Below, piece after piece: positions 1,407 through 48,276 of a stretch of 64,000 bases of DNA. The notes under the pieces were generated by a model. It was not told the DNA's origin. It did not search any database and saw only the letters and a program-made list of their open reading frames with translations. Both the position numbers and the translations under genes were made by a program. Origin of the DNA: an uncultured bacterium (GTDB lineage: Bacteria; Omnitrophota; Omnitrophia; Omnitrophales; Aquincolibacteriaceae); assembly GCA_964482725.1 (NCBI GenBank), contig CAYZYT010000001.1:86318-150317 (forward strand). Direction: 5' to 3'. How positions within the stretch are numbered: position 1 is the stretch's first letter; each line of letters starts with the position of its first letter.

Positions 1407-1429
1407 TACGGTTTACGCGATTTACTGAT

Positions 1430-2364: not shown

Positions 2365-2380
2365 ATCAACCCTCCTCTGT

Positions 2381-2412
2381 TATAAGTTACAGTAATCACT
2401 GTAACTTATAAC
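2381..2412. promoter_or_regulatory. Perfect 32-bp palindrome (TTATAAGTTACAGT-AATC-ACTGTAACTTATAA) directly upstream of the MNT-HEPN operon. Candidate operator.
   Basis: The palindrome is read directly from the sequence. It lies between the stop of ORF 2423..2728 and the start of the MNT gene at 2364. The MNT protein carries an HTH, so autoregulation through this site is plausible. Confidence 0.5.
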
Positions 2413-2422
2413 AGAACTATTG

Positions 2423-2728: not shown

Positions 2729-2866
2729 CGCCTGCTTACCTAAACGGCGGATCTCCGTGTCCTCGAGAAGCTTTTTTTCTAAAAAATTTTTCTGGGACCC
2801 ATAATCAGCCCTGTAAAAATCACCGACTTTATCGGTCTGCTTCTTTTTGTTACCCTCTCCGGATTT

Positions 2867-3277
2867 TTACTCCTCAACCTTTCCCCCGCGCTTCTGCGCT
2901 TCGATCTTCTTGAGAAGACGCCGTTTTGTTTCTTCGTATTTCATTCGTCCAGGTAAGGTCAAATTCCTCCTCAGAAGCCAGTCGGTCTCCTCCATAGCCA
3001 AATAGTAATCACCGTTTTTCTCGTAAAATCTCAACAATGATCCCCTCGCGACCACTTCTGTGTCGTCGTTTTTCGCCATACGAAGAGCTTTTTTATAACA
3101 ATCAAGCGCCTCCTGCTTTTTTCCGCTCAAAGCTAATTGGTCGCCCTCATTTAATAAAGAGTAATATTTTACTAAAAGGCTTTCCGTTGTCTCAGTGGAC
3201 GCTGACACAGCAAAGCCTTCTACAGCAAAAAAAAGAATAAGAAATACGATTGAACTCTTACTATATATTTCCTTCAT
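2867..3277 (-). CDS. TPR-like secreted protein or lipoprotein, translationally coupled to the giant protein
   Basis: 136 aa. N-terminal signal peptide (MKEIYSKSSIVFLILFFAVEGFAVSA) followed by helical TPR-like repeats (ALDCYKKALRMAKNDD..., LLRFYEKNGDYYLAMEE). Its start overlaps the giant gene's stop by 4 nt. Confidence 0.6.
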   Translation of the reverse strand: MKEIYSKSSIVFLILFFAVEGFAVSASTETTESLLVKYYSLLNEGDQLALSGKKQEALDCYKKALRMAKNDDTEVVARGSLLRFYEKNGDYYLAMEETDWLLRRNLTLPGRMKYEETKRRLLKKIEAQKRGGKVEE

Positions 3278-6200
3278 CCTTCTAACCTCGATTCGAATAG
3301 AATGGGATCTATTGAATAAACTTTTCTTGTATCATCGTAGCTAACACCCATCCTTCCGCCATTAAGAAGATCGAAAAGCTGAACGACATTCGATGATGCA
3401 AGGCTTAGCTCTCTCATAAATAAGCTCGTTTTTCGGGCGATCTCACGCTCTTCGGCGCTGCCGTACTCAAAAGAGGAATCATAGCTGAAATCGTCGTGCC
3501 CGGCACCCAGGATTTCGATATTGCACTGATTGGGAAGCGCCGTGACATTCCCATTTTCGTCCACGATCTTAAAATCGCGCTGATCCAGAAGGGGCACTGC
3601 AAGACCGGGCTTCACACCACGCACGCGAACAAGCGTCTCAAGATAAGGATCATCGATAATCGCGTCTCCCACATACGGTCCCTCATAAACGACAAGCGTC
3701 TTGATCCGGGAACGATAGTCGTCCGGCATATGCTCCAACGCTTCGATCATAGGCTGAAAATTCCCCGAATGCGAAAAATGGGTGAACTTCATATTGGGAT
3801 CAAGGCCAAATTCCCGCTGGTTCAATTCGATAAGATCAACATAACTCTTCAATTCCCTTTCGATCTCATCGCGCATAAAATTGCACCCGAACCAGGTATC
3901 GGCCATCCACCGGAACACATTCCCAACGAGCGAGGTCTCTTCATAGAGCGTCACGGGAAGTGAACTCGTTGTAAGTATATTCCCATGCCGGTCACGGGCG
4001 ATGTTCCCGTCCGAATCAAAAAGCACGATGCCCGGAGTGCCCTTTTCCGCCTGGTCTGACTTAAGATCATTGATGAACTCCATGATGAGACCAGGGACAG
4101 CGTCGGGTGATTGATGCGTATTCCAGAATCCATTGCCGAATATAAACGCTACCAGCTGAGCTACGGATTCGGAGGAAAGATTCGTATTAAAATTATAAAA
4201 GAGCGGGTTCAGGTCCTGGAGGTCCGGTGCGATCGAAAAATCAAACGTGAATCGACCGTCTGCCGTCAGATAATGAGAAATCCCAAGATTATAATTGGTG
4301 AACTCAATAGCTCCGGAGGCATTGAACGATAGACGTCCGTATGTTTCCCCCGTCCAATCCCGGAACGAGATCTCCCGAACCAGGCCCTTGGGATCGAGAA
4401 GATCCCGGCGAGTCGTTCCATCAGGCATCCGTTCCTCGACAATCACTTGGATGATCCTTCCCTCCTCATCAACATCCCAACGGATGAGGCGCGGCTTACG
4501 ACCGTTGGAGTATTCCTCATAAATAGCGCGGATCTCAAGCCGTGTCCCTCTGGGGACATAAATAAAATTAATCGTCTTACCGTTCTTCGCCAGCTTCAGC
4601 AGCTTCGCGGACTCGCCCGCATAGATGATATCATCGGCAGAAGGCATTCCCCGCTCGATCCACTGGCTCAAACTCTCCCCGGCGCCCGTAAACTCCTGCA
4701 ACGCTTCCCGCGTAAACAGAGCGATCGCATACTGCTCGAGGCCTTCCGAAAAACCAAGATCTCGGATCGAGCCAAAAAGCTGCGCCAACATGGCCGGATC
4801 CAAAGAATGATAAATCGATTCGTCTACGGATTTGATAAGACTGTCGACAACGCTAAACCGCGTTGGCGAGGCTATGAAATCTCCGAAAAGGCCCGCGACG
4901 ACCCGGCTGGAAAAAGAACCGAGAAGCGAATCATCAAGGCCCCACCGAGCCATCAAAAACTCCGCGCTTACAGAGAGAACACCCCCCAAAGTTTCTCGGC
5001 TCAAAACAGCCTCTTTGATGAAGCCGAAGATCCCGGACGGATTAAAATCGATGGAACCGTTCCCCAGGAAAGCACCGGCAATATTTTCGGTGATGGCGGC
5101 GATCGGGGATCCTAATAATCGCATCAACCGGGGATCGAAGCCCATGGATCGGCTGACGAGTTCGAGACCGCCCAAGGTGAGTTGGGAAGCCATATGGGGA
5201 GCGATCTGGAGAAGACCGGCTTTGAGTGTAAGACTTGGATCAAAAAAAGCGGTTAAGCTCTGCGTGGCAACCAGAGAAAGGAGATTCGCGAACGGCGGGG
5301 CAAGGCCTCTTCTGAGCGCGATTTCGGAAACGCCCTGCATCGCAAGATGTTGAAGCCCTGCGTGCATAAAACTCGATGTGGCACTGCCAAGCCCTAAAAA
5401 TCCACCTCCCACAAAAGCTCCGGCAAGCTGCGTAAGCCTCGAATCCAGGCCCAATCCCTCAAGCCCTTTGGAAACACCGATCGTCAGCCCTGCCGCAACA
5501 AGCTGACGGGCCACATTCTGCGCAAAACTGAATGCATAGCCGGTCGTCACACCCTCCTTGATAATGGCCTGGGCAGGCGCTAACAAAAAATCCTTCACTT
5601 TGATAAGCCCGGACCCGATCGCATTCAATCCGCCTGAAAAACATTCCTTCAGAAAAACAAAGCCATTCTGAAAAAACCGGCCGACATAGGTCACGGAGTC
5701 CCAGAGCATCTTGCTGATATATAGAAAGCCCTGCTTGATCGTCTCAAAAACAGATTGTTGAGCAATACTCGAAAAAACCGCCTGCATCCCTTGAACGATA
5801 AACCCGCCGAGTCCGGCCACGATCCCGAGGATCCCCGCCACAAGCGCCGCATAGCCAAGGATTTTTCCGAATGCCGGGCTAAAGATCGAAACCACCCCAC
5901 TTGCGGCGGTCAACACAAGCGAAGCCACGAAAAAAAAGATGAACCAAAAAGCCCCTCGGATCTCCATAGCCTCCTGGTCCGAAAGTGCTTTCTCGAGAAT
6001 TGCCTGCTCTTCGGAAACCAGCAAAGGCCCGGCATTGTCTTCTGAAACCCAGACCTTGAGGAATTGTTCTTTCGTGATCGTCACCGATTCACCGTCCGTG
6101 CCCTTGCCTGCCTCCCGGTAAGTCACCTCGGCATCCGTCACTTTTTCAAGCATCACAAAATGATCTTCCCCGATATGCGCGATCATTCTCAAAGTGCAGG

Positions 6201-9200
6201 CACCGGCGGAAGACCCGCAAGCGGATCGATACATCGATCGAAGATCCTCGAAAGTGTATTTCCCCGCAGAGAAATTCCGGGCGTGGATCGCCGCCGTCCG
6301 GTCCAAGGCGAACAGGGAGATCAAAAGATCGCCTTCGGAGAATTTATGGATCACGCCCGTCAGAATATCGATCAAGATCGCTTCTTTCGCGATCACGTCC
6401 ATCGACACGTTCACGCCCTTCGAGGCCAACATCGCCTGGAGCGAAAGAAACGCTGACTGGCCAAAGTGAAGATCTCGGCTCCGCAACCATCCGAGGATCT
6501 TTTCCGTATCTTGTCGGGTGAGACTGACCGCTTCGGAAGGATCGAGTTTCAAATTTTGCAATAATTGCGCCCGAACCTCCAGAGACGCTGTCAGATATTC
6601 TTCCAGAAAGCTTTGGACCGCCCCGAGAATGGCCGCTTTTTGAGCCTCGCGCGTCGCCTTTTCCGAAGAATTTTGAAGTTCACTCCTGAGCGTCTCCGTA
6701 TCAAGCCGGCCCGCCGTCTTTGAACGGTTCACCCATTCATCGAATTCCTGCCGGGAGGCATCACGGCCGAGGATCCTTCTGAAAAAGTCCGTGATAATCG
6801 GTTCTATCTCCTGACGCAGAACATCCAGAAGGAACTCCTGTTTTTTTTGTTCCAGCTCCTGCCTTTTTTCGGCAGTCGCCTGTTCGATCTCCGATTTTTT
6901 GGATGCGACCGCGCCCGGGATCTCGGCCAACTGCATTTCACCGACCGCTATAAGTTCGGATCGCTGACCTGCCAAACGATTGATCGCATCCTGGATGCCC
7001 GGGACTTCGAACGTTTCTTCATGGCAGGATTTCCAAAAAACAAAACTACGGCATGTTTTTACATTCCGGAAACGCTGCGCTTGCAAGACTGCGATCTGAG
7101 TTGAGATCTGCCGCGCCCCGGCCTCCACGCTTTCTTTGATCTGCAAACGCGCGGCTTCATCCTGCCCGGCCAGACGATAATATGCGTCAAATTTCGCCTG
7201 CTCGATCTGCTGCTGAAACCTTTGGGATTCGGCTTCAAAATCACTGCGAGCTTTCACAAGCGTGATCTTCTTCAAGACTGCCTCGTTAGAATCCTGGCAT
7301 CCTCCCACCGGGCATTCATATTCATGGACCGCCACAAGATCGCCGACCGTGTTATAAGTCTCCCGGATCTTTCCGAACTCATAATAGGCTTTCATGCCAT
7401 CGATACGGCTCGTATAAATGATCTGCCCTTGAGCATCGTAAACCGTGGTGCTTTGCGTATCCTGAGACACCTTAAGTTTTTGGTAGCGCTCCAAAAATGG
7501 GCTGTAGGCCTCCGGGACCGCCAACGGGATATTCAATAACATCGGGGTATTTAAAAACAGAGGTTTTGTTTCCCCCGAGACAACAACCGTCTCGCTCCTT
7601 TCCTCTACAGTCGAAAAGAAACCCACCCCTGTCTTCTCGCGACCTTGGCCCATACCAAGCCCTTGGGCACCGAAAAAAGTCCATGGGCTGTTCGAGACCG
7701 ACGCCTGACGGATCTGCGCGGCACCCAACCCTTCCAAAAGCGTCAAGATTTCGTTACCGGCTTGTGAAAAGGAGCCGTCGGAAACCGCCATCGCGACCGC
7801 TTCGCCGGGTTTGATCCCTAAAAGAAAATTCTTGATCCTTGCGCGATCTCCGGACGATCCAAAACTTCCGGCGCAAAGATCCCACTGGTTCATCCCCGCC
7901 TTATAGACAGCAAACAAAAACCCGTTCCCCTCATGTTGGGCAATCTCTTGACCGCTCTCATCAAAAAGTTTCTGCGTTGTATCCGAAACAAGTTTCACTT
8001 CTTTTGGGAATGGAACTCCGTTGAACGCGATTTGGGACCGCTCGAAATGCGTATAGCCCGTCACGAGGCCAAGCGCATCCAAGACATACGAAAAAGTGTG
8101 CGTAACCCCGCTCGCGGATTCCGTCTTTGTGAGACGACCTGCGGTGTCATAGCTAAAAAACCATTCGCCGATCTTCAGTCGGATGCCGGTCCATCGATCC
8201 ATCTCGTCTTGTAAAAGCTCGTAAGTTTCCGCTTCAGGAAGAGCAATGGTGAAAAGCTGTCCATCCGGAAAACGCCCCCGGACCGGCACAGAGCGCTCGA
8301 TCTCCAGGATCAATCCGTCCGGAAACTGGATCTGCCCACTCAGGATATTCTGGTCGGAATCGAACGAAAGATTGACTCCATGCCCCCCGCCGGCAAGGGT
8401 CACCTCGCCGGTCCCATCCCTTTTGAAATCAAAAAGAACCTGCGACCCGTCCTGAGCCTCATACCCGATCAGATTCACCGCGCGCAATCCTGTCGCAGAG
8501 AAAAGTCTGGCAGGAAGGTCCTCTTCCGAAAAGCTCGCCTCCGGACCAGGCGCTTGTGTGTAGTCGGAATATTCATACAAGAAACCGTCCTTCGTAAGAT
8601 GCTTGATCAAGTCCCCATTTGAATCATAGAACCATGTCGTTCCTCGCTCATCCGTCACTTGTGTTCCGTCCCCAACAAAAGCATATTGCGTGCTGTTGAG
8701 GGCACGGCTGTTATAGGTCATTTGAGCGCCGATCAATTTCCCGTTCTCGTAGCTATAGCGCGTCTGAAGTTGATCCGGATCGGTCGCCGAAAGAAGTTTC
8801 CCGTCCTTGAACCGGCGTTCTTCTCCGCTTAGCCCATCCTTAAAAACGGTGATCTCTTGGCCGTCTGCATCAAATTCATAAAATAAAAGATATTCGCGAC
8901 CATCCGTCTGGATGATCTTTTGGAGGGCGCCATAGTGATAGTTGATCGTCCCCCCCGTAGACGTTTCACCAGGCGCCCCGATCGTTCCCTGCGACGAGTT
9001 GCCCGACACGGCATACTCGTGAACGGTTCCATCCGGCAAGGTCATGCGACTGACATTTTGTCCCCGAAGCTCCACCTGCGTTCCGTCGAGACGTTTAAAA
9101 TTAACAAGCTCACCGTCCCCCTCAAGGACATTTTGATAGTTCAAAACGGTGGGAATATCCAACAGCTCGGCCAGCGGCGGATAAACAACCGGAGTTTTTG

Positions 9201-12200
9201 AAGCAATGGCGGCCCCGACAGAAGTCAGCTGCATGAATTCGATCCGGAGACTCTTGAGTTTGCTAGCGAGAATCCCGGCAGGGCCTTCCCACAGAGGGTG
9301 ATCCATTTTTTTTAAAGCCAGGTAGGAAATATCCTTGATATAAAAAGCACCTGTTTTCCCCACTCCCGAAGACTGGCGAAAAACTTCGATCGTTACTTCC
9401 GCCTCCACCCCGGCCTTGTAAACCAATGGAAAATCGAATGTCTGGTAATCACTTCGGGTAGCGTCCACCTGAAAAGAATAAAGGGTAGACTGCTCGGAGG
9501 TCTTGAGTGTTAGTTGCAAAGTCTGGTTCCAATCCATCGAGGGATCTTTTTTGATCGTAAGAGTTAAAAAATCATAGTTTTCAATATTGACGGGAGTTGC
9601 GACATGCCGTGCAGACATTCCCAAAACGGGGCCGTTCAGATCCTGATAGTTGAATTGATAGCGCGCCAATGCGCCATCCCCAAAATCCCCCTCCACGGCC
9701 TGGGTAAGCTCACCGGGAGGAAGAGTTCCGGCACTAAAACCGACCACCGCATCCGCTCTTTCGAGCACATTGACAGGCGGTTCTTCCAAAATATGTGTTT
9801 TTTCGATCACGCGATCCGGCCGCTGCAGATACTCCGAAAGCTTCATGTATCGAGAGACGGTCTTCGAAGTCCCTGTTTGAGGATCCGGGACGGTTTCGAA
9901 AAAGCGAGCAAACGCGTTCGTGACCCTGCCCCCGGTAGGATCCAGATAATACGAGAAATAGGTGATCCCGTTCTGCGGGGTTTCAATGGCCTCTATGAGA
10001 TCCTTAGAATAAAAGACTTTTACGCCGCCTCCGACATCGGTCCCTTGCGATCCTGTCTGATCAATATCAAACCCGCCCCCTCCGACAAGCGCCACATGGG
10101 CCTTCGCGAGGTTCCCGTCATCGGCAAAAACAATGTCCGTCAGAGTGGCTGTGTCGGTTTGAATGGCATGGATTTGGCCTTGCTCAAAATCAACAACATA
10201 GCCGTCCTCCACAAGAGTTGTGAGTTGACCGCTCGCATCAAAGATCTTTTTACAGTCATTATCCTGGACGACAAAAGAACGGATCTCGCCCCGAAAACTC
10301 TGGTCGTAATAGAACCGTCCCGTTTCTAGTTTTCCGCGGGCCAGATCGATCACGAATGTCGCAAGCCCATTTTCAAAAAGGACCGTCCGACCGTTCCGGA
10401 ACACCCATTTCACGAGTTGTCCCTTTTGAAAATACTGGATCCCCCCGTCCGCCCGTCTGAGGACTCCCTGCACCAGCTTTCCATCCGAATCGACCGTAAA
10501 ATTCTCGAGAGTCTCCTTCTGCGCATAACCGCTTTCATAGCTGGCCTGATCGATAATCTTCTGCTGGATCAACGCACGGATCTCGGTTTCCGTCCTCCCG
10601 AGCAAAAGCTCCCATTGAATTTCATTTGAAGTTCTGACTTTCAAAGCTGAAAGTGGCCCCAGGAACAGATCGCCCGCGATAGGATTGCCGTCAAGGGGCT
10701 GGATCGAGATGGCCAGCTGGCTCATGGCGCCGGCAGGTTTCGGGATCGGAATGGAAATATACTGCCAGTCATAGGACAACGCACCCGTCAGGAAAACCTC
10801 GCCCATTCCCTTGAATTCGAATTTCAACCGAACATTTTCGGGCGTCCCGGGCGACAGCTTGACCGGGACAGAAAGAAAATCATATCCGGAAAGATCGAAT
10901 CCCGGGTAATTCGCCCAGATTCCCACGGGCTTCCCTGCCGACCGAAAATCAAAACTCAGATGCCTTACCTCCCCAAGACTGAGATCCATGGCGAGCATGC
11001 TCATCAAATGCCCCGACCCCGGCGTATAGAAAACTCCCTGGGACGAAGCTCGGTTTAAAATATCGCGTTGCAACCCGCCCAAAAGCGCGGTCGCGGAACC
11101 CGCGTGTTTTGGAGAAAGGCAATATTCCTGCAAATTGATCCTCCGGAGATTCTCTCCTTCCCCAAACTCGATCTCAACGTGATGGAATTTTCCACTCGGG
11201 GTCAAATAATTGAACACGCGCCCTGCTCCCCATTCCGGATCCACCAGCACAGGGACAAAAGCCTGTTGCTTGATGAGCCCCGCAGAAAGTCCATCCGGCA
11301 TGGCACTCGACCCGTCATAAAGCGGGGTCACAGTCTCGCCAAAATCAGGAGGCGGCAAGTTCGTTCGAATCGCAGGATTTAATTTGAAACTCAATCCTTG
11401 ATAAAGGGCATCAAAAGAGGATCGGACACCTGTCCGTCCCAGATATTTTTGAAAATAATTCCGGCTTGTATTCAGAAGGGAAAGAATAAAAGACGCCTGA
11501 TCCACACCGTAATACTGGTCGGAATAGACGGGGACCGTACTCATCACGGTTTCTCCGGTCTGGGGATCCTCCCGGGAAACTTTCCGGAGCTGGATCGCAT
11601 CAACAAAACCCGCGCCGGTCCGCATCTCCGGAAAATGAGACTCCATGTTTTTCAAAAATTGGAGTGTATAATGCGGCGCCAACGGAAAAGCGGCCGCGGT
11701 CCCATAAACAGACCCAGTATCCGTCCTTAAGAGATCGTCCGTTTCTGCAGCTCCGGGCAATCCTATCTTCCCCTGATAACCCTGCAACGGCACATCGCCG
11801 GCCGAAAGAAGACCCGGGATCCCCTGCGTGTTGACATATTCCGCTTGAGCGTAGAGAAAATTCCTCAGAGCGACTTCAAATTCCGGATATTGTGTTTCGT
11901 CCGCATGGATAAGCGGCCAGAACATCTGAAAGGCACCTCCGTCATAGGGCGTCGCCACATCGATCGTATCCCCGCTTTGAGTCTTAAAGGGACGGATCGC
12001 TATGTCCAGGTTCTTTAACGCGTCCTGGTATTGCGGATATTTTGCCGCAAGCCAGATCATTCCAGTCCTGAATTCGTTAAAAACACGGTCAATGTAATAA
12101 TTATTGATGAAATTCCATTGCCTTGTCCCCGCATCGAGGCCATACGCCCCGTGAAAACGTTTTTTACCAGGATCATAAAAAGCTGCATAGCCGGGTTCCT

Positions 12201-19992: not shown

Positions 19993-20424
19993 TTACTTAC
20001 AGCGGCAACGCTTCTTAAGAAGCGCATACTCCTGAACAACTTCCTTGATCTCGGCGGGTACGCGGCAGGGCTTCATGGTCTTGTTCACGAAAACATGCAC
20101 GGTATAACCCGTTGCGAGAGAAACCTGGGTCTTCGCATTCATCACCTGATATTCAAAACGCAAAGTGCTGTTGCCGATCTCGACAACGCTCGTCCTGACG
20201 ATAATGTCATCATCGTAGGTCGACGGCGCGAGATAATTGGCGTGCGCCTCCGCCACCGGAAGGTAGATCCCTTTTTTTTCGCATTCGGTGTACGGAAACC
20301 CGAGCGCCCTGAAATATTCCGTGCGCGCGGCCTCGAACCATTTCAGATAATTCGCGTAATAGGTGATCCCCATCTGATCCGTGTCTGCATAAAGCACCCG
20401 GTAACGATAATCAAAATAGTTCAT
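19993..20424 (-). CDS. Acyl-CoA thioesterase of the YbgC/4HBT (hotdog-fold) family
   Basis: 143 aa. Starts MNYFDYRYRVLYADTDQMGITYYANYLKWFEAARTEYF, the typical hotdog-fold 4HBT/YbgC N-terminus with the catalytic Asp. Confidence 0.7.
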   Translation of the reverse strand: MNYFDYRYRVLYADTDQMGITYYANYLKWFEAARTEYFRALGFPYTECEKKGIYLPVAEAHANYLAPSTYDDDIIVRTSVVEIGNSTLRFEYQVMNAKTQVSLATGYTVHVFVNKTMKPCRVPAEIKEVVQEYALLKKRCRCK

Positions 20425-20503
20425 GATATCTCCTCGGTGAACGGGAAACGCCGAACGGCAAACGTTCTCGTTCCCCGTTACCCGTTCCCCGGAAAAAGAT
20501 TTT

Positions 20504-21601
20504 TTAAAAAAAATTCTTTTTTGTTTGGATCTTTTCTTTACGCTCGCCCGCTAATTTTTCAAGCAGCTCTCGCTCCGGCTTGCTCAATTTTGTCGGGATC
20601 TCAATATCGACCTTCACATACTCCTCCCCACGGCGGCCCTCCATCCCAAACGCCGGAACGCCCTCGCCTTTGATCTTCAGGACCTTGCCGGCCGGAGTTC
20701 CGGCCGCGATCTCAAGGTTCGTCTTTCCCGTAAGGGTGGGCACTTCCACCTCTCCGCCCAGCACGGCAATGGTGTAAGGGATCAACACCTCACAATAAAT
20801 GTCTTGGCCCTGGCGCTCGAAGGTCTTGCTTTTTTTTACGAGCACTTGGATATAAAGATCGCCTCGGGACGCGCCCCCTTGCCCTGCCTCCCCTTCGCCC
20901 GTCACTCGGAGTCGTGAGCCATGTTCAATGCCGGAGGGGATCTTGACTTGAAGCTTGCGTGTTTTCCTCAAACGTCCTTCCCCGTGGCACGTTTGGCAGG
21001 GTTTCTCGATCGACTCCCCCTCCCCATGACAACGGGCACAGGTTCTGCGAAGCGTAAAAAAACCCTGGGAAACACGCACTTCGCCCCGACCTCCGCAATC
21101 GGCGCAAACTTTCTTTTTGGAACCTTTTTCGGCGCCCGTCCCCTGGCACTCGCTGCAAGTTTCCTTGCGCGGGATCTCAAGGTCAAAGGTTTTCCCGGTC
21201 AGCACTTCCGCCAGTTCGAGCTCGACGGTGTATTCAAGATCCGAACCCCGTTGCCCGCGGCCGCGCCTTCGGCCACCGCTCCCGCTCCCCCCAAAAAAAT
21301 CCTCGAAAAGATCGCCAAAAATATCACTGAACCCGCCAAAGGCATCCTGAAAACCTTCGAAACCGGAAAATCCAGCGCCGCCCATGCTGTGACCAAATTG
21401 GTCGTAACGGGCCCGTTTGTCTGAGTCGCTCAGGACCGCATAGGCCTCGGCGGCTTCCTTGAATTTTTCTTCGGATGCTTTATCCCCGGGATTACGATCC
21501 GGATGATATTGGAGGGCAAGCTTACGGTAGCTTTTCTTGATAGTTTCCCCGTCTGAATTCCGGGTCACGCTCAACACTTCATAATAATCGCGTTTGGTCA
21601 T
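20504..21601 (-). CDS. dnaJ: Molecular chaperone DnaJ
   Basis: J-domain with HPD ([14 protein letters not shown]), a G/F-rich linker, four CxxCxGxG zinc-finger repeats, and a C-terminal substrate-binding domain. Confidence 0.95.
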
Positions 21602-21673
21602 AAACCTTAGGATATCGGATGATGGATGGAGGAGGGTGAAAAACCCGCTTTTACTTCATCCGCCATTCTGTTG

Positions 21674-22336
21674 TCAGGTGATCTCGTCCTGTTTTTCTTC
21701 GGACGCGGGCGGTGGATTGGGAGACACACGGACACGGACCTTTGCAGCCCGGAGAAGACGGTCCTGCAACATGAAACCGGGCTCCAGCTCGTCCACGATC
21801 TGGTCCTCCTTACCTTCTTCGGACACATGCGCAACCACTTCATGAAAATGGGGATTGAAGGTTTGACCGACAGTCTCGATCTTCTTCAGCCCGTGCATTT
21901 TGAGAATATCGGCCAGTTGCTTTTGAACTCTCTCCACGCCGGAAATGACCGTCTTCAAATTTTGACGCAGGGCTTCATAACTCGAGGCATTCGCAGAAGC
22001 CGTGTTCGCATGACCCACCGCACGCTCAAAATTGTCCAACACCGGGAGGAGATCTTTTAAGATCCGCTCCTGGCTGAATTTGATGAAGTCCTCTTTATCC
22101 CGCGCGTTCCGCTTCTTCGCGTTCTCATAATCCGCCGCCGCGAGCAGAAATTTCTGGCGCAGCCCTTCGAGCTCCTCTACCTTTTTCTTGAGATCCTCAT
22201 ATTCCTGAACGGCGACTTCTATTTTTCCGCCTTGGGGCGACGCGGAAGGTAGCGAGCCCTCTTTCACTTCGCCCGGCATCTGATTTCCTGTATCCGGCTT
22301 TTCATGAGAATGATTTTTTTTGTGGTGGCTCATCAT
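21674..22336 (-). CDS. grpE: Nucleotide exchange factor GrpE
   Basis: Coiled-coil N-terminus and a conserved GrpE C-terminal beta-domain (...EVVAHVSEEGKEDQIVDELEPGFMLQDRLLRAAKVRV). It overlaps hrcA by 4 nt. Confidence 0.9.
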   Translation of the reverse strand: MMSHHKKNHSHEKPDTGNQMPGEVKEGSLPSASPQGGKIEVAVQEYEDLKKKVEELEGLRQKFLLAAADYENAKKRNARDKEDFIKFSQERILKDLLPVLDNFERAVGHANTASANASSYEALRQNLKTVISGVERVQKQLADILKMHGLKKIETVGQTFNPHFHEVVAHVSEEGKEDQIVDELEPGFMLQDRLLRAAKVRVRVSPNPPPASEEKQDEIT

Positions 22337-23112
22337 TCTTCAGATTCCCTATGTTCCAGAATATCCCCGACGGCCACAGCCATGCGAGAAACCAAGGGAA
22401 TGATCTGGCGATACGCCATGCGCTTGGGCCCCAGGATCGCGATCACCCCCTGACGGTTCTTTCCCGCGGTATAACGCGCCGTCACAATGGCGCAATCGCC
22501 CAAAGCTTCGTGCGAATGCTCATGACCTACAGAAACCGAAACATGTTCCGGGTCCGCGTGCGTCAGAACCCACTGCATCAACGCCACTTTTTCTTCAAAA
22601 ACACCCAGAAGGTTTCTGATTTTTCGAACATCCTGGAACTCCGGTTTCTCAAGCATGTAGGATAAGCCCTGTAACGAAAGCTTGAGACGGCCCGGCTTTT
22701 CAGACGCGGGGACTTCTGCGAAGGGCATTAACGTCAAACCGATTTCCTGAGAGAGCGAGGAAAGCAAGAGTGAAACATGGTCCAAAAACTCCTCAATTCT
22801 TTCATCCCCGTTCTTAGAAATGAGTTCTCCTCCCAAACGGTTCAAAGGTGCTTCGGAAGCATCTTCAAAGGAAGTATGATCCAGGTAATAACGATAGCCA
22901 TGGTCCGTCGGTAGACGACCGGACGAGGTGTGCGGATGTGTCAAATACCCCATTTCCTCCAAAGCACCCATCTCATGACGGATGGTCGCGGGAGAAAAAG
23001 AAATGGCGCATTTCTCCGCGATCGAACGAGAGCCCACCGGCTGAGTCGTCTCGATATGCGTTTCAATGACACCCCGGAGAATGTCGTTCTGTCTTAGGGA
23101 TAAGGTTTCCAT
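22333..23112 (-). CDS. hrcA: Heat-inducible transcription repressor HrcA
   Basis: N-terminal winged-HTH (LSLRQNDILRGVIETHIETTQPVGSRSIA), typical of HrcA. In an operon with grpE. Confidence 0.9.
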   Translation of the reverse strand: METLSLRQNDILRGVIETHIETTQPVGSRSIAEKCAISFSPATIRHEMGALEEMGYLTHPHTSSGRLPTDHGYRYYLDHTSFEDASEAPLNRLGGELISKNGDERIEEFLDHVSLLLSSLSQEIGLTLMPFAEVPASEKPGRLKLSLQGLSYMLEKPEFQDVRKIRNLLGVFEEKVALMQWVLTHADPEHVSVSVGHEHSHEALGDCAIVTARYTAGKNRQGVIAILGPKRMAYRQIIPLVSRMAVAVGDILEHRESEE

Positions 23113-23115
23113 GGG

Positions 23116-23186
23116 CCCTGATTTTCGTTCATTTCATTGATAAGGAAGTCGGTCCTGATTTTCATTTACTTTAAATCGAAAATCAG
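23116..23186 (-). promoter_or_regulatory. hrcA leader containing three copies of CTGATTTTC/GAAAATCAG (two direct, one inverted). No canonical CIRCE was found.
   Basis: CTGATTTTCG at 23118..23127, CTGATTTTC at 23156..23164, and the inverted copy CGAAAATCAG at 23177..23186. One copy sits 5 nt from the hrcA ATG, where the RBS should be. Confidence 0.4.
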
Positions 23187-23306
23187 CACAGTCCCAACCC
23201 TCCCTGCATTTTAACGAAGGATTGGAACAGGACAATCATGATCGGCGGGTATGATAGCAAAAAACAGGCCGGATGAAAAGGAGGCGTTATAAGCAAAAAG
23301 GACACA

Positions 23307-23374
23307 GCGCATAGTACCTAGCCCTTGAGAAAAAACGCTCCGTCTCTCTCCCAAGCTCGCTAAGTACTATGCGC
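23307..23374. repeat. 16-bp near-perfect inverted repeat, GCGCATAGTACCTAGC ... GCTAAGTACTATGCGC, with a 36-bp spacer. It lies between the CpxP-like gene and hrcA.
   Basis: The arms are at 23307..23322 and 23359..23374, matching 15 of 16 positions. Read directly. Confidence 0.5.
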
Positions 23375-23424
23375 CAGATACTTGATACCTTCCCGCCAAC
23401 AGGCAGGTTCTTGCCGTAGTGAAA

Positions 23425-23955
23425 CTAGCTCTTTTTCGGCTCTTGATCCTTTTTTCCCCAGCCGTCATGCTTCTTCTGCATCCAGCCTTTATGCTGATCC
23501 TGCATTTTGGCGAACTGCTCAGGCGTCAGGATCTCCTTCATGGCGAAAATGCCATCGATGTTCTGTGCGAACATCTGACCCTTGAGAGCATTCACTTCGT
23601 CGATGAGACCGCTCACCTCGGCCCGCGTCGTTCCCGGTTTCGCAACCACTTCGTGAAGCGCCTGCATTTTTTTCTTCATTTGATCACGAACCGCTTTGCT
23701 GCTTTCCATCTTCGCTTCCCGCTGGACTTTGAGCTTCTCTTTCTGCTCGGGGGTCAAATTCAGTTCTTTGAAGAACTCTTTGGGATCAGAACGTCCATAC
23801 CCCGAACCCTCGTCTCCGGAACCACCCTGAAGAGCCCCCGGATCACCTGCGGTTGCCGTGCCGCCGTCTTGAGATTCGGCATAGACCCCAGGCCCCGAAG
23901 CCATCAAACCCACCACCAGCAAAAGCGCCATCACCTTCGTTAGTTTTTTTTCCAT
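23425..23955 (-). CDS. Periplasmic LTXXQ-motif protein of the CpxP/Spy family
   Basis: Signal peptide (MEKKLTKVMALLLVVGLMASGPGVYA). Two LTPEQ motifs (NLTPEQKEKL and ILTPEQFAKM), which are the LTXXQ signature of the CpxP/Spy envelope-stress chaperones. Confidence 0.7.
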   Translation of the reverse strand: MEKKLTKVMALLLVVGLMASGPGVYAESQDGGTATAGDPGALQGGSGDEGSGYGRSDPKEFFKELNLTPEQKEKLKVQREAKMESSKAVRDQMKKKMQALHEVVAKPGTTRAEVSGLIDEVNALKGQMFAQNIDGIFAMKEILTPEQFAKMQDQHKGWMQKKHDGWGKKDQEPKKS

Positions 23956-24057
23956 TTTGAAGCCCTCCCTTTTCTGTCTTCTATACTGTTCTCTGTTAAA
24001 TTTTAAGGGTTAACAGTATTGTACTGCCTCCCCATAAAATCAATTGTCAGGCAGTGC

Positions 24058-24086
24058 TAAGACAACTCCCGTTCGATAATAGTTCC
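24058..24086 (-). promoter_or_regulatory. Candidate ECF-sigma-type promoter (GGAACT-N17-GTCTTA) upstream of the CpxP-like gene
   Basis: In minus orientation, GGAACT is the reverse complement of 24081..24086, followed by a 17-nt spacer and then GTCTTA (reverse complement of 24058..24063). This resembles sigma-E-type -35/-10 elements. It sits immediately after the anti-sigma gene's stop codon. Confidence 0.35.
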
Positions 24087-24087
24087 A

Positions 24088-24585
24088 TCATCCGCCCATC
24101 TGCTCCAGAACCGCCGAATAATCTTTCGGATCGCTATTCAAAAGGTCCGTGTCCCCGGCTTTGAGACCGCTCAGGAAGGTCATCTGCTCGGAGATATAGC
24201 CATAGACCGGATCCGCAAAACTGGAAGGCCATTTCGCGAGCACCACGACCCCCAGGATCACAACGGTCACGAAAGCCGCGCGCATCAGGGGAGCAGGCCA
24301 AGGGAAACGGGAAGCAAAAATATCCACAAGCTTCCAAAAACCACCGTTGGAACGCGCTCGCTCCGCCTCAAGCCTCTCCTGAATCCTCTGCCAAACAACG
24401 CCCTCCGGCTGCAATGCTCCGGCTTCTTTAAACGGAACCACCGAGCTCCTACGAACGACCGTAAGAAATTCCCGGCACTCCGCGCACACGGTTAAATGCC
24501 GTTCAACTTCCCTATTCTCTTCGGGGCCCAGCTCTTTGTCCACATATTCGGTTATAAGCCGATCCTGAATTTTTTTACATTCCAT
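24088..24585 (-). CDS. Zinc-finger (zf-HC2-type) anti-sigma factor with one TM helix
   Basis: MECKKIQDRLITEYVDKELGPEENREVERHLTVCAECREF gives an HxxxCxxC zinc-binding anti-sigma N-terminal domain, followed by a TM helix (AAFVTVVILGVVVLA). The AAGGAGGTG RBS is upstream of the ATG at 24585. It overlaps the sigma gene's end by 11 nt. Confidence 0.7.
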   Translation of the reverse strand: MECKKIQDRLITEYVDKELGPEENREVERHLTVCAECREFLTVVRRSSVVPFKEAGALQPEGVVWQRIQERLEAERARSNGGFWKLVDIFASRFPWPAPLMRAAFVTVVILGVVVLAKWPSSFADPVYGYISEQMTFLSGLKAGDTDLLNSDPKDYSAVLEQMGG

Positions 24586-25138
24586 GGCTCGCCACCTCCT
24601 TTTCCCCAAGGGCCATCAAGGTCTCACGGGCTCTTTTGAGCCTTGAACGGACCGTATTGATTTTAAGGCCAAGACTCGTCGCGATCCCCTGATAATCCAA
24701 CCCTTCGATCTCCCGGAGCACGATACAAGCCCTCTGGTCCGGGTTCAGTTGATCAAGCAGAAACTTCAGCTGTTGCTCGGTTTCTCCGGCTTCAAGACGC
24801 CTCCCGGCATCCGGCTGCGTCACAGTTGCGGGATCCTCAAAAACCTCTTCGACTTCGCGCGTGGTCACGCGACTTCTTTTTTTTGCATGGTTGAGGGCCG
24901 TATTCACCGAGATCCTGTAAAGCCACGTCTTAAACGACGCCTCAAACTTGAAAGAACCGATATTTTTATGAATCTTCAGAAAGACGTCCTGCGTCACTTC
25001 CTCGGCATCATGTTTTTTATTCACGACACGATAGGCCAATGTGTAGACATATCCGGAGGCCCTTTGATAGATCTCCCTGAAGGCTCCCCGGTCCCCTTGT
25101 CCCGCTCTTAGGATCAGTTCCCGCTCGATCTCTTGCAT
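24575..25138 (-). CDS. ECF-subfamily RNA polymerase sigma-70 factor
   Basis: Sigma-70 region 2 (FREIYQRASGYVYTLAYRVVNKKHDAEEVTQDVFLKIHKNIGSFK) and region 4 (LDQLNPDQRACIVLREIEGLDYQGIATSLGLKINTVRSRLKRAR). The AAGGA RBS is upstream of the ATG at 25138; the ORF track extends to 25162. Confidence 0.85.
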   Translation of the reverse strand: MQEIERELILRAGQGDRGAFREIYQRASGYVYTLAYRVVNKKHDAEEVTQDVFLKIHKNIGSFKFEASFKTWLYRISVNTALNHAKKRSRVTTREVEEVFEDPATVTQPDAGRRLEAGETEQQLKFLLDQLNPDQRACIVLREIEGLDYQGIATSLGLKINTVRSRLKRARETLMALGEKEVASHGM

Positions 25139-25153
25139 GGTCCTTATACCTTT

Positions 25154-25185
25154 CAATTTCATTAAAGATGAAATTGGGGCTGTTC
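25154..25185. promoter_or_regulatory. Conserved palindromic element, copy 2 (CAATTTCA-N7-TGAAATTG-GGGCTGTTC). It overlaps the promoter and leader of the sigma/anti-sigma operon.
   Basis: Direct reading: caatttca ttaaaga tgaaattg gggctgttc. It lies 16-47 nt upstream of the sigma factor's start at 25138. Confidence 0.6.
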
Positions 25186-25390
25186 TTGTCGACCGTAAAG
25201 GAAATAAAACGGAAGACGAGGATAGTTTGTTACCTCAACCCCCGACGACTTAGACCGCAGCCTCTGGGGTTTAGTTCCCCTCGCAGAGGACTTTTTCGAT
25301 CGCTGCCCATTCTAAGCTAAATTATTTTTTCCCCTCATTTTTTTTCGCATGTTAAACTTTGCTTCTTTTTTGAAAAGGGAATGGATCTCT

Positions 25391-28171
25391 ATGGACTTAA
25401 AACGCCTAAAAAAAGCGACCTGCATCTGCATCGCTGTCACCCTATGGTTTGGCCCAAACTCCGGCCTGGCCGTCACGGCCGACAACGCGACGACACCGGT
25501 ACCTCAAGAGATCTCTTTGCCCACCCCTCCCAAGCCAAGCCCCCCAGGCGCTCTTCCCGAAAAAACACAGGAACCCCTCTATTATAAACCCGGCTCCCTT
25601 TTCAAACAGGGGCCTTTGCCCCCCGACATGATCCGGGCCCCCCAAGAAATATCACCGAAAGAGTCCCTCTATATTGTCTCCGAACCCGACTTTTACGCCC
25701 TCAGTCAAACCCTGCCGCTTTCGGATGCCGCGCGATTTTTTTTAGAAGAAACTCTCATCCCTAACGAATCGATCTATTTCATGCCCGGGACGGGCATGGA
25801 CGCCAAGACAGGCATGCCTTACGACCACATCCGCATTCGCTTAAAGGAAAATCTTTTGAGCGAGGTCGGAAATTACACCGCCGCCTCGAAGTTGTCCCTG
25901 CTTATCCCCTTTTTATTAAAAGTGATACAAAAAAACCCTTATTACCGGCAGGTGAAGCTCACGCCCGAGGAAGCCTCCGTAAAACTGAAGCAGACTTTAA
26001 GGACCCTCATGAACTACAACCAAAAATATCCGGACTACGGCGGCTTCCTGCCCTGGGTTGACATCCGGCCCAATGGAACGATCGCGCCGGCCTCCACGAA
26101 AGTCCCCTCGCTGGACAACGGTCAGCTGACCTGGGCCCTGGCTGCGGTCGTTGCCGCGCTGGAAGATTCTGCAGACCCCGAACTACGCAAGATCTCTAGC
26201 ATGGCGCAGGGAATCCTGCACAGCCAAAACTACAGAAAATTCTACGATGACAAATTAAAACTTCTGCACGGCACGATCCAATTTGATACTGAAACGCGCA
26301 CATGGAGCGGGGACACTACTTATTATTTGAATGATATGTTCGAGGGAACGCTCGCCGTACTGTGGGGAGTTCTCAACGGCCAGATCCCGGAAGAAGTTTG
26401 GGACAACTTGTCCATCCCCACCATCGAATACATCACAGCGCATGATGAAAAGATCACGACGCTAGCGGGATTCCGGGCTTCGTTCCACGAGCATTGGGCT
26501 TTGGCTTTTCTTCCTGTCATGAGTTCCGCTCTAGCCCCCCTCTACCAGAACTTTCTTTACGCCCAGGCCGACCACGCCCGCAGGAACCACCTCCCGGGAT
26601 TCCTCAGCACGGCTTATGACCCCAAAGGGATCTACCGTCAGATGGGGGTCCCTTCCATTGCGTACAATCCGGTCGATCGAAGCGATGTGGCCGTGCTTTT
26701 CGCAACCGCCATGGCAATGCTGATCTCTCCAACCGTCGGCGCCTCCTGGCTCATCAAGCTTTATTCCTTTAAAAACTTCATCACACCTTATGGGGGCTAC
26801 GAATCCGTGGGCCGGGACGGTTATGCCGACATCTTCACCGCCGATGCGAAAGGAATGACCCTCCTCGCCGCAAGCGGAGGCGTCGTGGACGAGATCAACA
26901 AATATCTCAATGAACGAACCGTTCCTAGGACCAGCATCCCGATGAACGTGAAACTCATTGAACTGCTGCATGCAAAATACAAGCAAATGCTTGCCGCGCG
27001 CGATGGCCGGCCAATCTTTTTTCCTTCGAAGCCGTTCCCCGCTCCCCCGGAAGACCCGATCGTGGTCAATCCTCAAAAACCTCCCGACGCGGGCGATGTT
27101 TATGATGTGATCGCTCACCTGCAACCCGGCCATTTGCACGGGAAAAATGTCCGGTCCATCGGCCGAAAAACCCTGGAGCAGGATATTTTCCCCGACCAGC
27201 CCATCCAGTTTGAATTTGATATTCCCGCGTACTATTCCTACTTCGATCAGTGGGCCTTCCGAGGCACTTACGTCGATAAAGCCGTCCGCATCGCCGACAT
27301 GCGCTATGTGACCCTCACTGTGCCGGCCCGGAATCCCCCGGGCATGTTCGAACTCGAGATCAAAAGCGACGACATAACCTTAGCGACGGTCATCGTCAAT
27401 ACCACCAAACCGGGAAGGATCTCGGCAGACGGAAACTGGAAAATCCTTGCAGAGAAGATCACGCCGATCCCGGAATCGGATGATAAGCCGTTCAATTACA
27501 TCTCGGTGGCAATCCACGACCCACGGTATCTCCTGGGAGAGTTCACCCGGGGCGGTCGCGAAGGAACGATCCTCTTAAAAGAGATTATCTTGTATAAAAA
27601 GTTCCCCTTTCCGGATACTCCGGAAACTTTATTTGAGCGCCAAGAGAAGGAAGATAATACGGAATTGGAATTGGTGCGCTACTGGCGCTTGAGCCACGGA
27701 GATTTGCCCTTCAGACGAGACGATCTTCGCGGCACCTACTATTTTTCGGGAGGTTTGGGATGGCGGGGCGGGTATATTCCTTATACCAACTTGTCGAAAT
27801 TCCGCTATCTTTACATCAAGGCCCGCAATGTCTCGGACAAAAGCTGCGGCTGTTTTTATGTAGAGCTGAAGCATGAATCGGACCAGCTCCTTGGGGAAAA
27901 AACGCCGATCCACATGCCCGCGGACCAGAAATGGCGCATCTACGAGATCCCCATCCCTCCGCACATCCGTTACACCTTCAATTATATTGCGCTCTCGGAT
28001 CCTTTTTCAAGTTTCGAATTGGGTTCACTCTTGCTTTCGCCCGCTGAGATCACGGGAGATTTAGGCGCTATCGAAAAGGTTTCATACTCACCGCGTGAGC
28101 ATAAACCCCTTGAGTGCACTCATCGCCCCTGCCCGACCACCGCCGCCGACCTAGAACCTAAAGGTCTGTAG
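25391..28171 (+). CDS. Secreted protein with a DUF3131/GH144-like (alpha/alpha)6 glycoside-hydrolase-like domain, paralogous to a domain of the giant protein
   Basis: Signal peptide (MDLKRLKKATCICIAVTLWFGPNSGLAVTA) and a Pro-rich linker. The central domain has strings shared with the giant ORF: NFLYAQADHARRNHLPGFLSTAYDP here versus NFLYAQAEYVNTQGIPGLLSAGD in the giant protein. This family includes endo-beta-1,2-glucanases and the glucoamylase-like domains of cyclic glucan synthases. The start at 25391 is preferred over 25349 because of the upstream AGGGAA. Confidence 0.65.
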   Translation: MDLKRLKKATCICIAVTLWFGPNSGLAVTADNATTPVPQEISLPTPPKPSPPGALPEKTQEPLYYKPGSLFKQGPLPPDMIRAPQEISPKESLYIVSEPDFYALSQTLPLSDAARFFLEETLIPNESIYFMPGTGMDAKTGMPYDHIRIRLKENLLSEVGNYTAASKLSLLIPFLLKVIQKNPYYRQVKLTPEEASVKLKQTLRTLMNYNQKYPDYGGFLPWVDIRPNGTIAPASTKVPSLDNGQLTWALAAVVAALEDSADPELRKISSMAQGILHSQNYRKFYDDKLKLLHGTIQFDTETRTWSGDTTYYLNDMFEGTLAVLWGVLNGQIPEEVWDNLSIPTIEYITAHDEKITTLAGFRASFHEHWALAFLPVMSSALAPLYQNFLYAQADHARRNHLPGFLSTAYDPKGIYRQMGVPSIAYNPVDRSDVAVLFATAMAMLISPTVGASWLIKLYSFKNFITPYGGYESVGRDGYADIFTADAKGMTLLAASGGVVDEINKYLNERTVPRTSIPMNVKLIELLHAKYKQMLAARDGRPIFFPSKPFPAPPEDPIVVNPQKPPDAGDVYDVIAHLQPGHLHGKNVRSIGRKTLEQDIFPDQPIQFEFDIPAYYSYFDQWAFRGTYVDKAVRIADMRYVTLTVPARNPPGMFELEIKSDDITLATVIVNTTKPGRISADGNWKILAEKITPIPESDDKPFNYISVAIHDPRYLLGEFTRGGREGTILLKEIILYKKFPFPDTPETLFERQEKEDNTELELVRYWRLSHGDLPFRRDDLRGTYYFSGGLGWRGGYIPYTNLSKFRYLYIKARNVSDKSCGCFYVELKHESDQLLGEKTPIHMPADQKWRIYEIPIPPHIRYTFNYIALSDPFSSFELGSLLLSPAEITGDLGAIEKVSYSPREHKPLECTHRPCPTTAADLEPKGL

Positions 28172-33799: not shown

Positions 33800-33903
33800 A
33801 TTTGATCTCCCGGAGCAAAGCAGTAATGAGATCCCATTTATAAAAAAACGGCCGGAGCTTTTAGACCCGGCCGTTTCCACTGAGTCTATTGTGCCACTTA
33901 ACG

Positions 33904-34176
33904 CTAGAACCCCATTTTCCTTTTCATGTCGTTGCCAGACTTCTGGGCTTCCTTCATGACCTTCTCGGCTTCCCGTCTGGTACAGGCGCCAAGACGATCC
34001 GCTTTTCGTTTTAACAGGATCTGATCCTTTTCCATCCCCTGCTTTCCAAGCGTCCCAAACCAATCTCCGGCTTGATCGATCGGAGTATCCTTAGTGCAAT
34101 CCGCGGCATAAGCGGTCAGGGTGAACCCGCCAAGCATAAGAGTGACAACAAAAAACGCGATGACGAATTTACGCAT
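33904..34176 (-). CDS. Small secreted protein (90 aa), first gene of the operon encoding the giant Ig-repeat protein
   Basis: Signal peptide (MRKFVIAFFVVTLMLGGFTLTAYA). Two Cys and a K/E-rich tail. Confidence 0.5.
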   Translation of the reverse strand: MRKFVIAFFVVTLMLGGFTLTAYAADCTKDTPIDQAGDWFGTLGKQGMEKDQILLKRKADRLGACTRREAEKVMKEAQKSGNDMKRKMGF

Positions 34177-48260: not shown

Positions 48261-48276
48261 AGGGGCTCCTTGTGTT

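Follow-up and report, generated by a model that had tools for sequence, protein, structure and literature searches.

Two genes in a 64,000-nucleotide stretch of DNA from an uncultured Omnitrophota bacterium (contig CAYZYT010000001.1, positions 86,318 to 150,317 of the forward strand; hereafter the window) raise the question of whether a giant protein with YD-type repeats and a free-standing secreted protein share one glucan-active domain, and whether that domain works as an enzyme in either. The original prediction, made from the letters alone, proposed that a GH144/DUF3131-like (alpha/alpha)6 domain, as found in certain glycoside hydrolases (GH), had been duplicated and that the copy within the giant was either a lectin-like targeting module or a catalytic one. 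We find that both proteins contain an (alpha/alpha)6 barrel of the SGL clan, that is, clan GH-S plus GH189 as defined in PMC12102758, but that the two barrels are assigned by sequence to different families, GH192-related in the giant and GH162-type in the free-standing protein. Most likely both would be active inverting endo-beta-1,2-glucanases. We give a probability of about 0.6 to this explanation as a whole, in which a role of the giant at the cell surface is the more speculative part. The two genes and their predicted barrels lie as follows.

3274..16689, minus strand: giant open reading frame (ORF), 4471 codons counted from GTG, from the ORF list and its translation.
25349..28171, plus strand: free-standing SGL protein, 940 codons (940 aa).
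11392..12744, minus strand: GH192-related SGL-clan (alpha/alpha)6 barrel of the giant, aa ~1316-1766, assigned from phmmer, the clade profile, an AlphaFold2 (AF2) model and Foldseek.
25676..26998, plus strand: GH162-type (alpha/alpha)6 barrel of the free protein, aa ~110-550, with Asp256, Glu332, His380, Tyr429 and Asp499.

A six-frame scan with hidden Markov models (HMMs) detects exactly two homologous domains of this fold in the window and no third copy. BLASTP aligns giant aa 1323-1672 with free-protein aa 134-461 in a single collinear high-scoring segment pair at 25% identity (E 2e-14), the free-family profile matches giant aa 1321-1698 with E 8e-29, and the giant-clade profile matches the free protein with E 7e-51. 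Profile-profile alignment of the two (hhalign) extends over 399 columns with a probability of 99.9% and E 1.2e-35. On these values the homology between the giant's domain and the free protein is real and far beyond chance. The domain had been placed at about residues 1650-2050 of the giant; the AF2 model instead delimits it at aa ~1316-1766, and the NFLYAQAEYV string cited for it begins at aa 1610. Three pairs of strings had also been quoted as collinear between the two proteins, and two of these, the pair opening with NFLYAQA in each protein and the pair DNGQLTWALAAV/GDALNLAVSLASV, do share alignment columns. The third, PWVDIRPNGTI/IPTGQTRTVYRYE, is out of register, because IPTGQTRTVYRYE of the giant sits within a beta-hairpin modelled at aa 1417-1446, an element apparently missing from more distant members of the clade.

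Placement of both regions in the fold and superfamily of endo-beta-1,2-glucanases and of the glucoamylase-like domains of cyclic beta-1,2-glucan synthases was borne out. Foldseek returns nothing but SGL-clan entries among the top 19 PDB hits for the giant's domain and the top 17 for the free protein, and 8XUJ, 6IMU, 8WY1, 8RF0 and 5GZK head the structure and sequence matches. Assignment to GH144 itself, for which a significant HMM match to DUF3131/GH144 had been named as the test, did not hold. The characterised GH144 enzymes (CpSGL, 5GZK; XcSGL, 8XUL; PF10091 'Glycoamylase', DUF3131) have the same clan and fold as both barrels, with template modelling (TM) scores of 0.6-0.74, and have the same clan-defining Glu, Phe and Tyr (His for Phe in the free protein), but significant membership at the sequence level is missing for both: in the giant PF10091 stays below its cut-off of 27 with 23.8 bits, and in the free protein it has no match at E <= 0.01, and the giant-clade profile reaches only E 0.006 or weaker against structures named 'putative glucoamylase'. 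Neither barrel receives a significant model in the Pfam and NCBIfam libraries searched.

Among characterised enzymes, EeSGL1 (GH192 Group 1, Endozoicomonas elysicola, 8XUJ) is the best match of the giant's barrel in both sequence and structure. As a single sequence, the domain has 8XUJ as its sole phmmer match (E 3.2e-14); a profile built from 14 clade sequences matches 8XUJ over its full length with E 1.4e-54 and the GH189 domain 8WY1 with E 1.4e-17, while leaving GH162 entries unmatched. Its AF2 model is confident, with a predicted local distance difference test score (pLDDT) of 92.4 and a predicted TM score of 0.91, and 8XUJ is again closest in Foldseek (TM 0.81-0.83). EeSGL1 residues D149 and E221, the mutationally supported catalytic pair, are matched by D1455 and E1539, and F274 and Y324 are also identical in the giant. 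GH162 membership is not indicated, the domain having no phmmer match to the GH162 enzyme TfSGL (0 bits) and a Phe in place of His316. The module can thus be classed from its sequence as GH192-related, with the qualification that identity to EeSGL1 is 23% and that its clade is separate from classical GH192: embedded-clade members score 36-100 bits against EeSGL1, the closest classical GH192 members 260-356 bits, and the embedded clade groups with 100% bootstrap support together with the intermediate sequence P0225, deeper nodes being weak (35-51%). The codons of the four key residues are as follows.

12325..12327, minus strand: Asp1455, aligned with EeSGL1 D149, candidate general base; Asp in 72/72 clade members.
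12073..12075, minus strand: Glu1539, in the column of the general acid (E221 of EeSGL1, E262 of TfSGL); Glu in 72/72 clade members.
11929..11931, minus strand: Phe1587, the clan-defining Phe (EeSGL1 F274; His in GH162); Phe in 71/72.
11776..11778, minus strand: Tyr1638, the clan-defining Tyr (EeSGL1 Y324); Tyr in 72/72.

The free protein, by comparison, resembles TfSGL of Talaromyces funiculosus (GH162, 6IMU/6IMW) more strongly than EeSGL1, with phmmer E-values of 2.6e-24 over aa 206-529 (6IMU) and 2e-13 (8XUJ), respectively. Structural similarity is high to both (Foldseek TM 0.80 and root-mean-square deviation 3.0 to 6IMW; TM 0.82 to 8XUJ). The general acid E262, H316, the base D446 and Y373 of TfSGL all have counterparts, E332, H380, D499 and Y429, so that the catalytic Glu and Asp and the family-specific His are kept; across 64 free-family sequences D256, E332 and D499 never vary, and conservation of H380 is at least 90%. 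PF26157 (SGL_GH162 in gene tables) is precomputed on all 76 of 76 clusters of free-protein homologues, of which the named ones are Omnitrophota, and the protein in the window itself finds no match in the local Pfam library. Similarity and residues together class the protein as GH162-type. It differs from TfSGL in having only 26% identity, two additional beta-sandwich modules, a Pro-rich linker and a bacterial (Omnitrophota) host, in a family described as almost exclusively eukaryotic (PMC12102758), and is a new bacterial member of the GH162-type family.

The ORF of the free protein had been read from position 25391. This is the likely start, the codon of Met15, which precedes a signal-peptide-like stretch (MDLKRLKKATCICIAVTLWFGPNSGLAVTA); the ORF itself is longer and opens at 25349. 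Its AF2 model (pLDDT 87.9) consists of an N-terminal helix at aa 14-34, a disordered Pro-rich linker at aa 38-105, the barrel and two C-terminal beta-sandwiches.

27086..27598, plus strand: beta-sandwich 1 of the free protein, aa ~580-750, from AF2 secondary structure with pLDDT >90.
27686..28048, plus strand: beta-sandwich 2 of the free protein, aa ~780-900, from AF2 and Foldseek, weakly related to module A of the giant.

Carbohydrate-binding-module-like or jelly-roll folds occur among the lower-ranked Foldseek matches of the protein, and the two modelled sandwiches may bind carbohydrate.

Residue correspondence was anchored in the published enzymology. Table S3 and the mutagenic primers of PMC12102758 fix EeSGL1 D149 (in AVDNGN, a motif confirmed by the D149N primer of the supplement), E221 (in KANESR), F274 and Y324 as well as TfSGL E262, H316 and Y373, with TfSGL D446 named in the main text, and the numbering was checked against 6IMW, which is the E262Q mutant of TfSGL. 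The clan is defined by equivalents of XcSGL E239, Y367 and F286, His replacing Phe in GH162 (PMC12102758). These positions are occupied by E1539, Y1638 and F1587 in the giant and by E332, Y429 and H380 in the free protein. Since the same paper treats Phe versus His as the difference that sets GH162 apart, each copy bears the signature of its own family. Whether the catalytic acids are conserved in each copy, a check raised with the original prediction, can therefore be answered family by family: D1455 and E1539 are present in 72/72 members of the giant's clade, and E332 and D499 are invariant in the 64 free-family sequences.

Phylogeny indicates that the separation of the two barrels is old. 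A neighbour-joining tree built from 51 domains (100 bootstraps) joins the free family with 100% support to its sister clade of eukaryote-type GH162 sequences, in a group that includes TfSGL, and the nearest GH162-type relatives of the free family are eukaryotic (clusters P0075 and P0077, made up of MMETSP transcripts and Symbiodinium). The giant's clade, also with 100% support, stands beside classical GH192. Pairwise identities in the multiple alignment are 21% for giant and free protein, 23% for giant and EeSGL1, 26% for free protein and TfSGL and 14% for giant and TfSGL. Because the copies lie across a 100%-bootstrap split at 21-25% identity, the two are, on this phylogeny, ancient paralogues from different families and not the product of a recent duplication. 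The description of the domain as duplicated is accordingly correct as to the presence of homologous copies and incorrect in so far as it implies a local or recent event.

Proximity in the window does lend some appeal to the alternative that a GH144/DUF3131 domain was duplicated locally and that the giant's copy became a non-catalytic, lectin-like targeting module. The genes are 8.7 kb apart, and one related genome, with 72% identity, preserves the same arrangement; the giant carries a possibly glycan-binding ILEI domain and repeat modules weakly similar to a beta-sandwich of the free protein, and there is the weak PF10091 match in the giant. That match is, however, below the cut-off and has no counterpart in the free protein, and the low identity across the family split speaks against a local origin. 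In addition, linkage is lost elsewhere. In a relative whose free SGL protein is 85% identical (L001/L002, compared with window 16689-16951), the giant is missing at the syntenic site with the FadL-GpsA-DnaJ-GrpE-HrcA-ECF sigma block (ECF, extracytoplasmic function) intact, which makes the giant an accessory gene, and in three more distant genomes the free-type gene occurs in unrelated contexts. Linkage of giant and free gene is thus limited to close relatives. The lectin-like part of this alternative fares no better, as Asp, Glu and Tyr in all 72 and Phe in 71 of 72 clade members would be unexpected for a degenerate binding module. Moreover, conservation in the giant is highest across the barrel (aa 1401-1800), with 49-66% identity among 13 orthologues compared with mostly 14-55% in the N- and C-terminal regions of the protein. 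The (near-)invariance of the catalytic residues and the conservation of the barrel argue for a working enzyme rather than a lectin-like relic, so that of the two roles originally offered for the giant's domain the catalytic one is favoured and the lectin-like one disfavoured. We consider local duplication with a lectin-like fate to be improbable.

The preferred reading, two active inverting endo-beta-1,2-glucanases, is drawn by analogy with the characterised families (PMC12102758). In this mechanism, protonation of the scissile bond would fall to the conserved Glu, E332 of the free protein and E1539 of the giant, acting via the 3-OH of the +2 glucose; as base, the GH162-type copy would use Asp499 and the GH192-type copy Asp1455. 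Beta-1,2-glucan would be the most likely substrate, all characterised GH144, GH162 and GH192-194 enzymes being specific for it (PMC12102758). Several observations weigh against this reading. The nearest characterised enzymes are at low identity (23%, giant and EeSGL1; 26%, free protein and TfSGL). Substrate-recognition residues differ between groups and a clan member, PgSGL4, has no known substrate (PMC12102758). In our alignment the Asp of TfSGL 'LDNGE' falls in the EeSGL1 D149 column, in conflict with PMC12102758, according to which TfSGL has no acid there. The window contains no beta-1,2-glucan utilisation genes in the form of a GH94 phosphorylase, a GH3 glucosidase or a sugar transporter, and more distant Omnitrophota do not keep the genes that surround the free enzyme here.

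A competing possibility is that both barrels are active glycoside hydrolases with one or both acting on another glycan, for example a surface polysaccharide of prey or host. The distance from characterised enzymes, the diversified substrate-binding residues, the orphan clan member and the lack of pathway genes nearby are all compatible with such a shift, as are the position of the embedded clade apart from classical GH192 and outside any Pfam model and the two extra beta-hairpins found near the barrel in the orthologous giants. This proposal must be set against the observation that all clan families whose hydrolytic activity has been measured act specifically on beta-1,2-glucan (PMC12102758), and that the clan-defining Glu and Tyr, which contact glucose at subsites +2 and -3, are conserved here together with the Phe/His position. 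We regard a different glycan as the most credible of the competing explanations, although a minority one.

Embedding of the barrel in a large protein is the second feature by which the giant departs from known enzymes. An exhaustive HMMER search of 1.84 billion representative proteins recovered 209 relatives of the giant's domain. Fourteen of these, in part incomplete, are orthologues of the giant, the longest having 4983 aa, and approximately 63 are non-orthologous, with ~28-38% identity and a median length of 1289 aa; 44 of the 63 exceed 1000 aa and just two have 600 aa or fewer. Giant orthologues of 4300-5700 aa occur in many Omnitrophota genomes. Embedding had been called unusual, and so it is when set beside the GH192 enzymes characterised so far, each a single domain of ~440 aa (PMC12102758); for this clade, which was found almost exclusively in Omnitrophota and whose barrels are usually built into proteins of 1,000-8,000 aa, it is the norm. 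The embedded module thus varies a known catalytic family in a new way, in architecture as well as in phyletic distribution. Ten of the shorter embedded-clade members have no Pfam match at all. The clade motif DG[GS]AFQxFW occurs at 81 loci in 185,579 species genomes, the best match being 82% identical and several genomes having two copies; the named loci belong to Omnitrophota except for one metagenome-assembled genome labelled Elusimicrobia, and many are labelled merely 'uncultured bacterium'. Named homologues of both proteins are Candidatus Omnitrophota. Two further proteins, P0167 (7,967 aa) and P0169 (7,976 aa), carry SGL barrels near aa 6400-6850, and as that of P0169 scores 226 bits to EeSGL1, barrels of the classical GH192 type are also built into giants.

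Outside the barrel, the giant is predicted to be exported and modular. As orthologue N-termini begin at the signal peptide, its real start is probably near codon 55. The predicted modules are listed below from N- to C-terminus.

16444..16527, minus strand: predicted Sec-type signal peptide or anchor, aa ~55-82, a hydrophobic segment ending ...LRAVAFCMVLIFSSNQMVLA and followed by DS.
15754..16176, minus strand: putative right-handed beta-helix (NosD-like) module, aa ~172-312; Pfam Beta_helix weak, TIGR04247 33.8 bits.
10573..11094, minus strand: repeat module A, C-terminal to the barrel, aa ~1866-2039; repeated internally as module B with E 4e-16 and 2e-08.
9250..9819, minus strand: repeat module B, aa ~2291-2480, paralogue of module A.
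7660..7854, minus strand: ILEI (FAM3/PANDER-like) domain, aa 2946-3010; PF15711 E 2.6e-7, 31.5 bits against a cut-off of 27.
5794..5940, minus strand: predicted transmembrane hairpin, aa 3584-3632; two Kyte-Doolittle segments scoring 2.3-2.4.
3277..4677, minus strand: variable C-terminal module, aa ~4005-4471, ~470 aa.

Orthologue N-termini show the same pattern, M..(K/R)..hydrophobic..Q.V.A followed by (E/D/N)G. The beta-helix module is found in some orthologues only (NosD/Beta_helix is listed for the L003/L004 orthologue), and in many orthologues homology to the giant begins only at aa ~570. The core common to orthologues covers aa ~570-3900 and both ends differ among them. Modules A and B are separated by a YD-type block at aa 2026-2290. 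Module A is presumed to be a beta-sandwich and possibly binds carbohydrate; it shows weak similarity to beta-sandwich 2 of the free protein (hhalign probability 64%, E 6.6e-5) and, in HMM searches, to members of the free family (E ~4e-4). A barrel plus beta-sandwich cassette common to both proteins was considered and is not claimed, its support being weak (hhalign probability 64%, HMM E ~1e-3 to 4e-4). Directly before the transmembrane hairpin, a strongly conserved region of ~190 aa (aa 3385-3575; window ~5965-6537, minus strand) carries invariant HFGQSAF and IAH...DH motifs. For this region a C39-like or papain-like identity was suspected but could not be assigned, profile searches of PDB sequences returning nothing below E ~0.01 and Pfam no match.

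Variation at the C-terminus is accompanied by variation in a neighbouring gene. Of 26 orthologues compared, 17 are homologous to the giant no further than aa ~4100, and in 13 of them the homology ends between aa 3864 and 4034. The C-terminal module has no Pfam or PDB sequence match, and an alpha/beta-hydrolase-like identity, suggested by (S/A)HSG(N/D) and (G/K)AGH motifs, could not be assigned, as PDB profile searches gave nothing below E ~0.01. Overlapping the stop codon of the giant is a gene for a small tetratricopeptide repeat (TPR) protein.

2867..3277, minus strand: predicted exported TPR protein of 136 aa with a signal peptide, from TPR matches.

Homologues of this protein are encoded directly downstream in L007, L009, L011, L019 and L023, exactly the orthologues with this C-terminal type, and were not found downstream of 10 orthologues with other C-termini. 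An exchangeable C-terminus with a co-varying TPR gene is the arrangement of a polymorphic effector and its cognate partner; the pairing appears toxin/immunity-like or effector/chaperone-like, and the TPR protein is a candidate partner, either immunity protein or chaperone, of the C-terminal module. In these respects the giant resembles Rhs/YD polymorphic toxins, with which it shares YD/RHS repeats (PF05593 37.9 bits, cut-off 22; TIGR01643 28.5, cut-off 15.8), a conserved body, an exchangeable C-terminal module and a small co-varying downstream gene. It differs from them in having only ~7 clear YD motifs in 4471 aa and a transmembrane hairpin and large non-YD modules inside its body. A regular-expression search for the PxxxxDPxGL core-end motif found just DPKGL at aa 4099, without the upstream Pro, and a canonical Rhs toxin architecture is ruled out by this missing motif and the sparse repeats. 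Secretion-system genes are absent from the annotated genes of the window.

These features also bear on the possibility that the enzymes serve to trim or turn over the bacterium's own periplasmic or capsular beta-1,2-glucan instead of acting on other cells. In this lineage the free gene is divergent from and adjacent to genes for an ECF sigma factor, an anti-sigma factor and an LTXXQ periplasmic-stress protein, and free-type genes are widespread in Omnitrophota, where they lie among housekeeping genes, as would suit a role in the cell's own envelope. The ECF linkage is, however, missing in more distant genomes, and no glucan synthase was seen in the window. With respect to the giant, its presence or absence among close relatives, its swappable ends and its co-varying partner gene form the pattern of an accessory effector or adhesin, not of a housekeeping function. 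A self-directed role appears to us unlikely, and somewhat less likely than a different glycan as the substrate. Regarding the neighbouring genes themselves, the ECF sigma, zf-HC2 anti-sigma and LTXXQ/Spy-like periplasmic protein genes (24088-25162 and 23425-23955, both minus strand) keep their divergent arrangement with the free SGL gene in close relatives only, and a general operon link of the free gene with the ECF sigma/anti-sigma genes or with the giant was rejected as the context differs in three more distant genomes.

Under the preferred reading of two beta-1,2-glucanases, the free protein would be a signal-peptide-bearing enzyme in which a Pro-rich linker leads to a GH162-type barrel and two possibly carbohydrate-binding beta-sandwiches. 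In the giant, of ~4,400 aa, a GH192-related barrel is combined with the predicted signal peptide, sparse YD-type repeats, the paralogous modules A and B, the ILEI domain, the predicted transmembrane hairpin and terminal modules that are exchangeable at either end. More speculatively, the giant could fix its glucanase to the cell surface or position it against a target cell and cut beta-1,2-glucans there, candidate targets being periplasmic or cyclic glucans of Gram-negative neighbours and the cleavage a step of adhesion, attack or feeding. A role against neighbouring cells is speculative but fits the lifestyle proposed for the phylum, members of which have been suggested to be predators or parasites and whose large proteins carry few annotated domains and have unknown roles (PMC10066038).

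Giant surface proteins have been described in the same phylum (Kizina 2022 as cited in PMC10066038; bioRxiv 10.1101/2023.11.21.568195; bioRxiv 10.64898/2026.06.07.730766). They are depicted as large, exported and membrane-anchored and are proposed to degrade polysaccharides of the target-cell surface. They differ from the present giant in their size of 20,000-147,000 aa and in their dockerin, TSP3, lectin and GH76-like parts or flanking GH2 genes. A term search of both giant-protein preprints returned no mention of beta-1,2-glucanase, glucoamylase or GH144 domains, and the phrase 'glycoside hydrolase', the one term searched there, is absent from PMC10066038. A far-reaching version of the proposal would have Omnitrophota, as the ultra-small predators or parasites they are proposed to be, display active beta-1,2-glucanase on large polymorphic surface proteins. 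While attaching to or attacking Gram-negative target cells, they would use it to cut the periplasmic or cyclic beta-1,2-glucans of these cells; the embedded clade would be a new GH family or subfamily specific to this lifestyle, and the free enzymes a prokaryotic sister group of a GH162 that is otherwise eukaryotic. Taken in its entirety we consider this a long shot, behind a self-directed role in likelihood.

Regardless of that larger scenario, a confidently modelled GH module with intact catalytic residues is present in at least 77 representative clusters of sparsely annotated large Omnitrophota proteins, which supplies a concrete and testable biochemical hypothesis for them. GH192, a very recently defined CAZy family, is extended by a clade that is confined to one phylum and nearly always built into multi-domain proteins. 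GH162, also very recently defined, is extended by a broad bacterial sister clade, which bears on the origin of this 'eukaryotic' family. If the substrate is indeed beta-1,2-glucan, this would suggest periplasmic glucans as a target in interbacterial antagonism or predation.

Several other genes of the window deserve mention. The gene at 28601-34063 (minus strand) encodes a protein of 1820 aa that contains six BACON_2 domains and several Ig-like domains of HYDIN/ASH/MSP type; as the syntenic contigs L001 and L003 lack it, it represents an insertion relative to close relatives. An ORF with a helix-turn-helix and an MNT-type nucleotidyltransferase, followed by an unannotated 131-aa ORF (1430-2364, minus strand), possibly constitutes an MNT/HEPN-like toxin-antitoxin pair. 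Three tandem paralogues of the choloylglycine hydrolase/Ntn-hydrolase (CBAH) type occupy 46992-50831 (minus strand). At 54284-56992 (minus strand), a Peptidase_S74 (endosialidase chaperone) protein adjoins a beta-helix/NosD protein, an arrangement resembling tailspike or tail-fibre genes.

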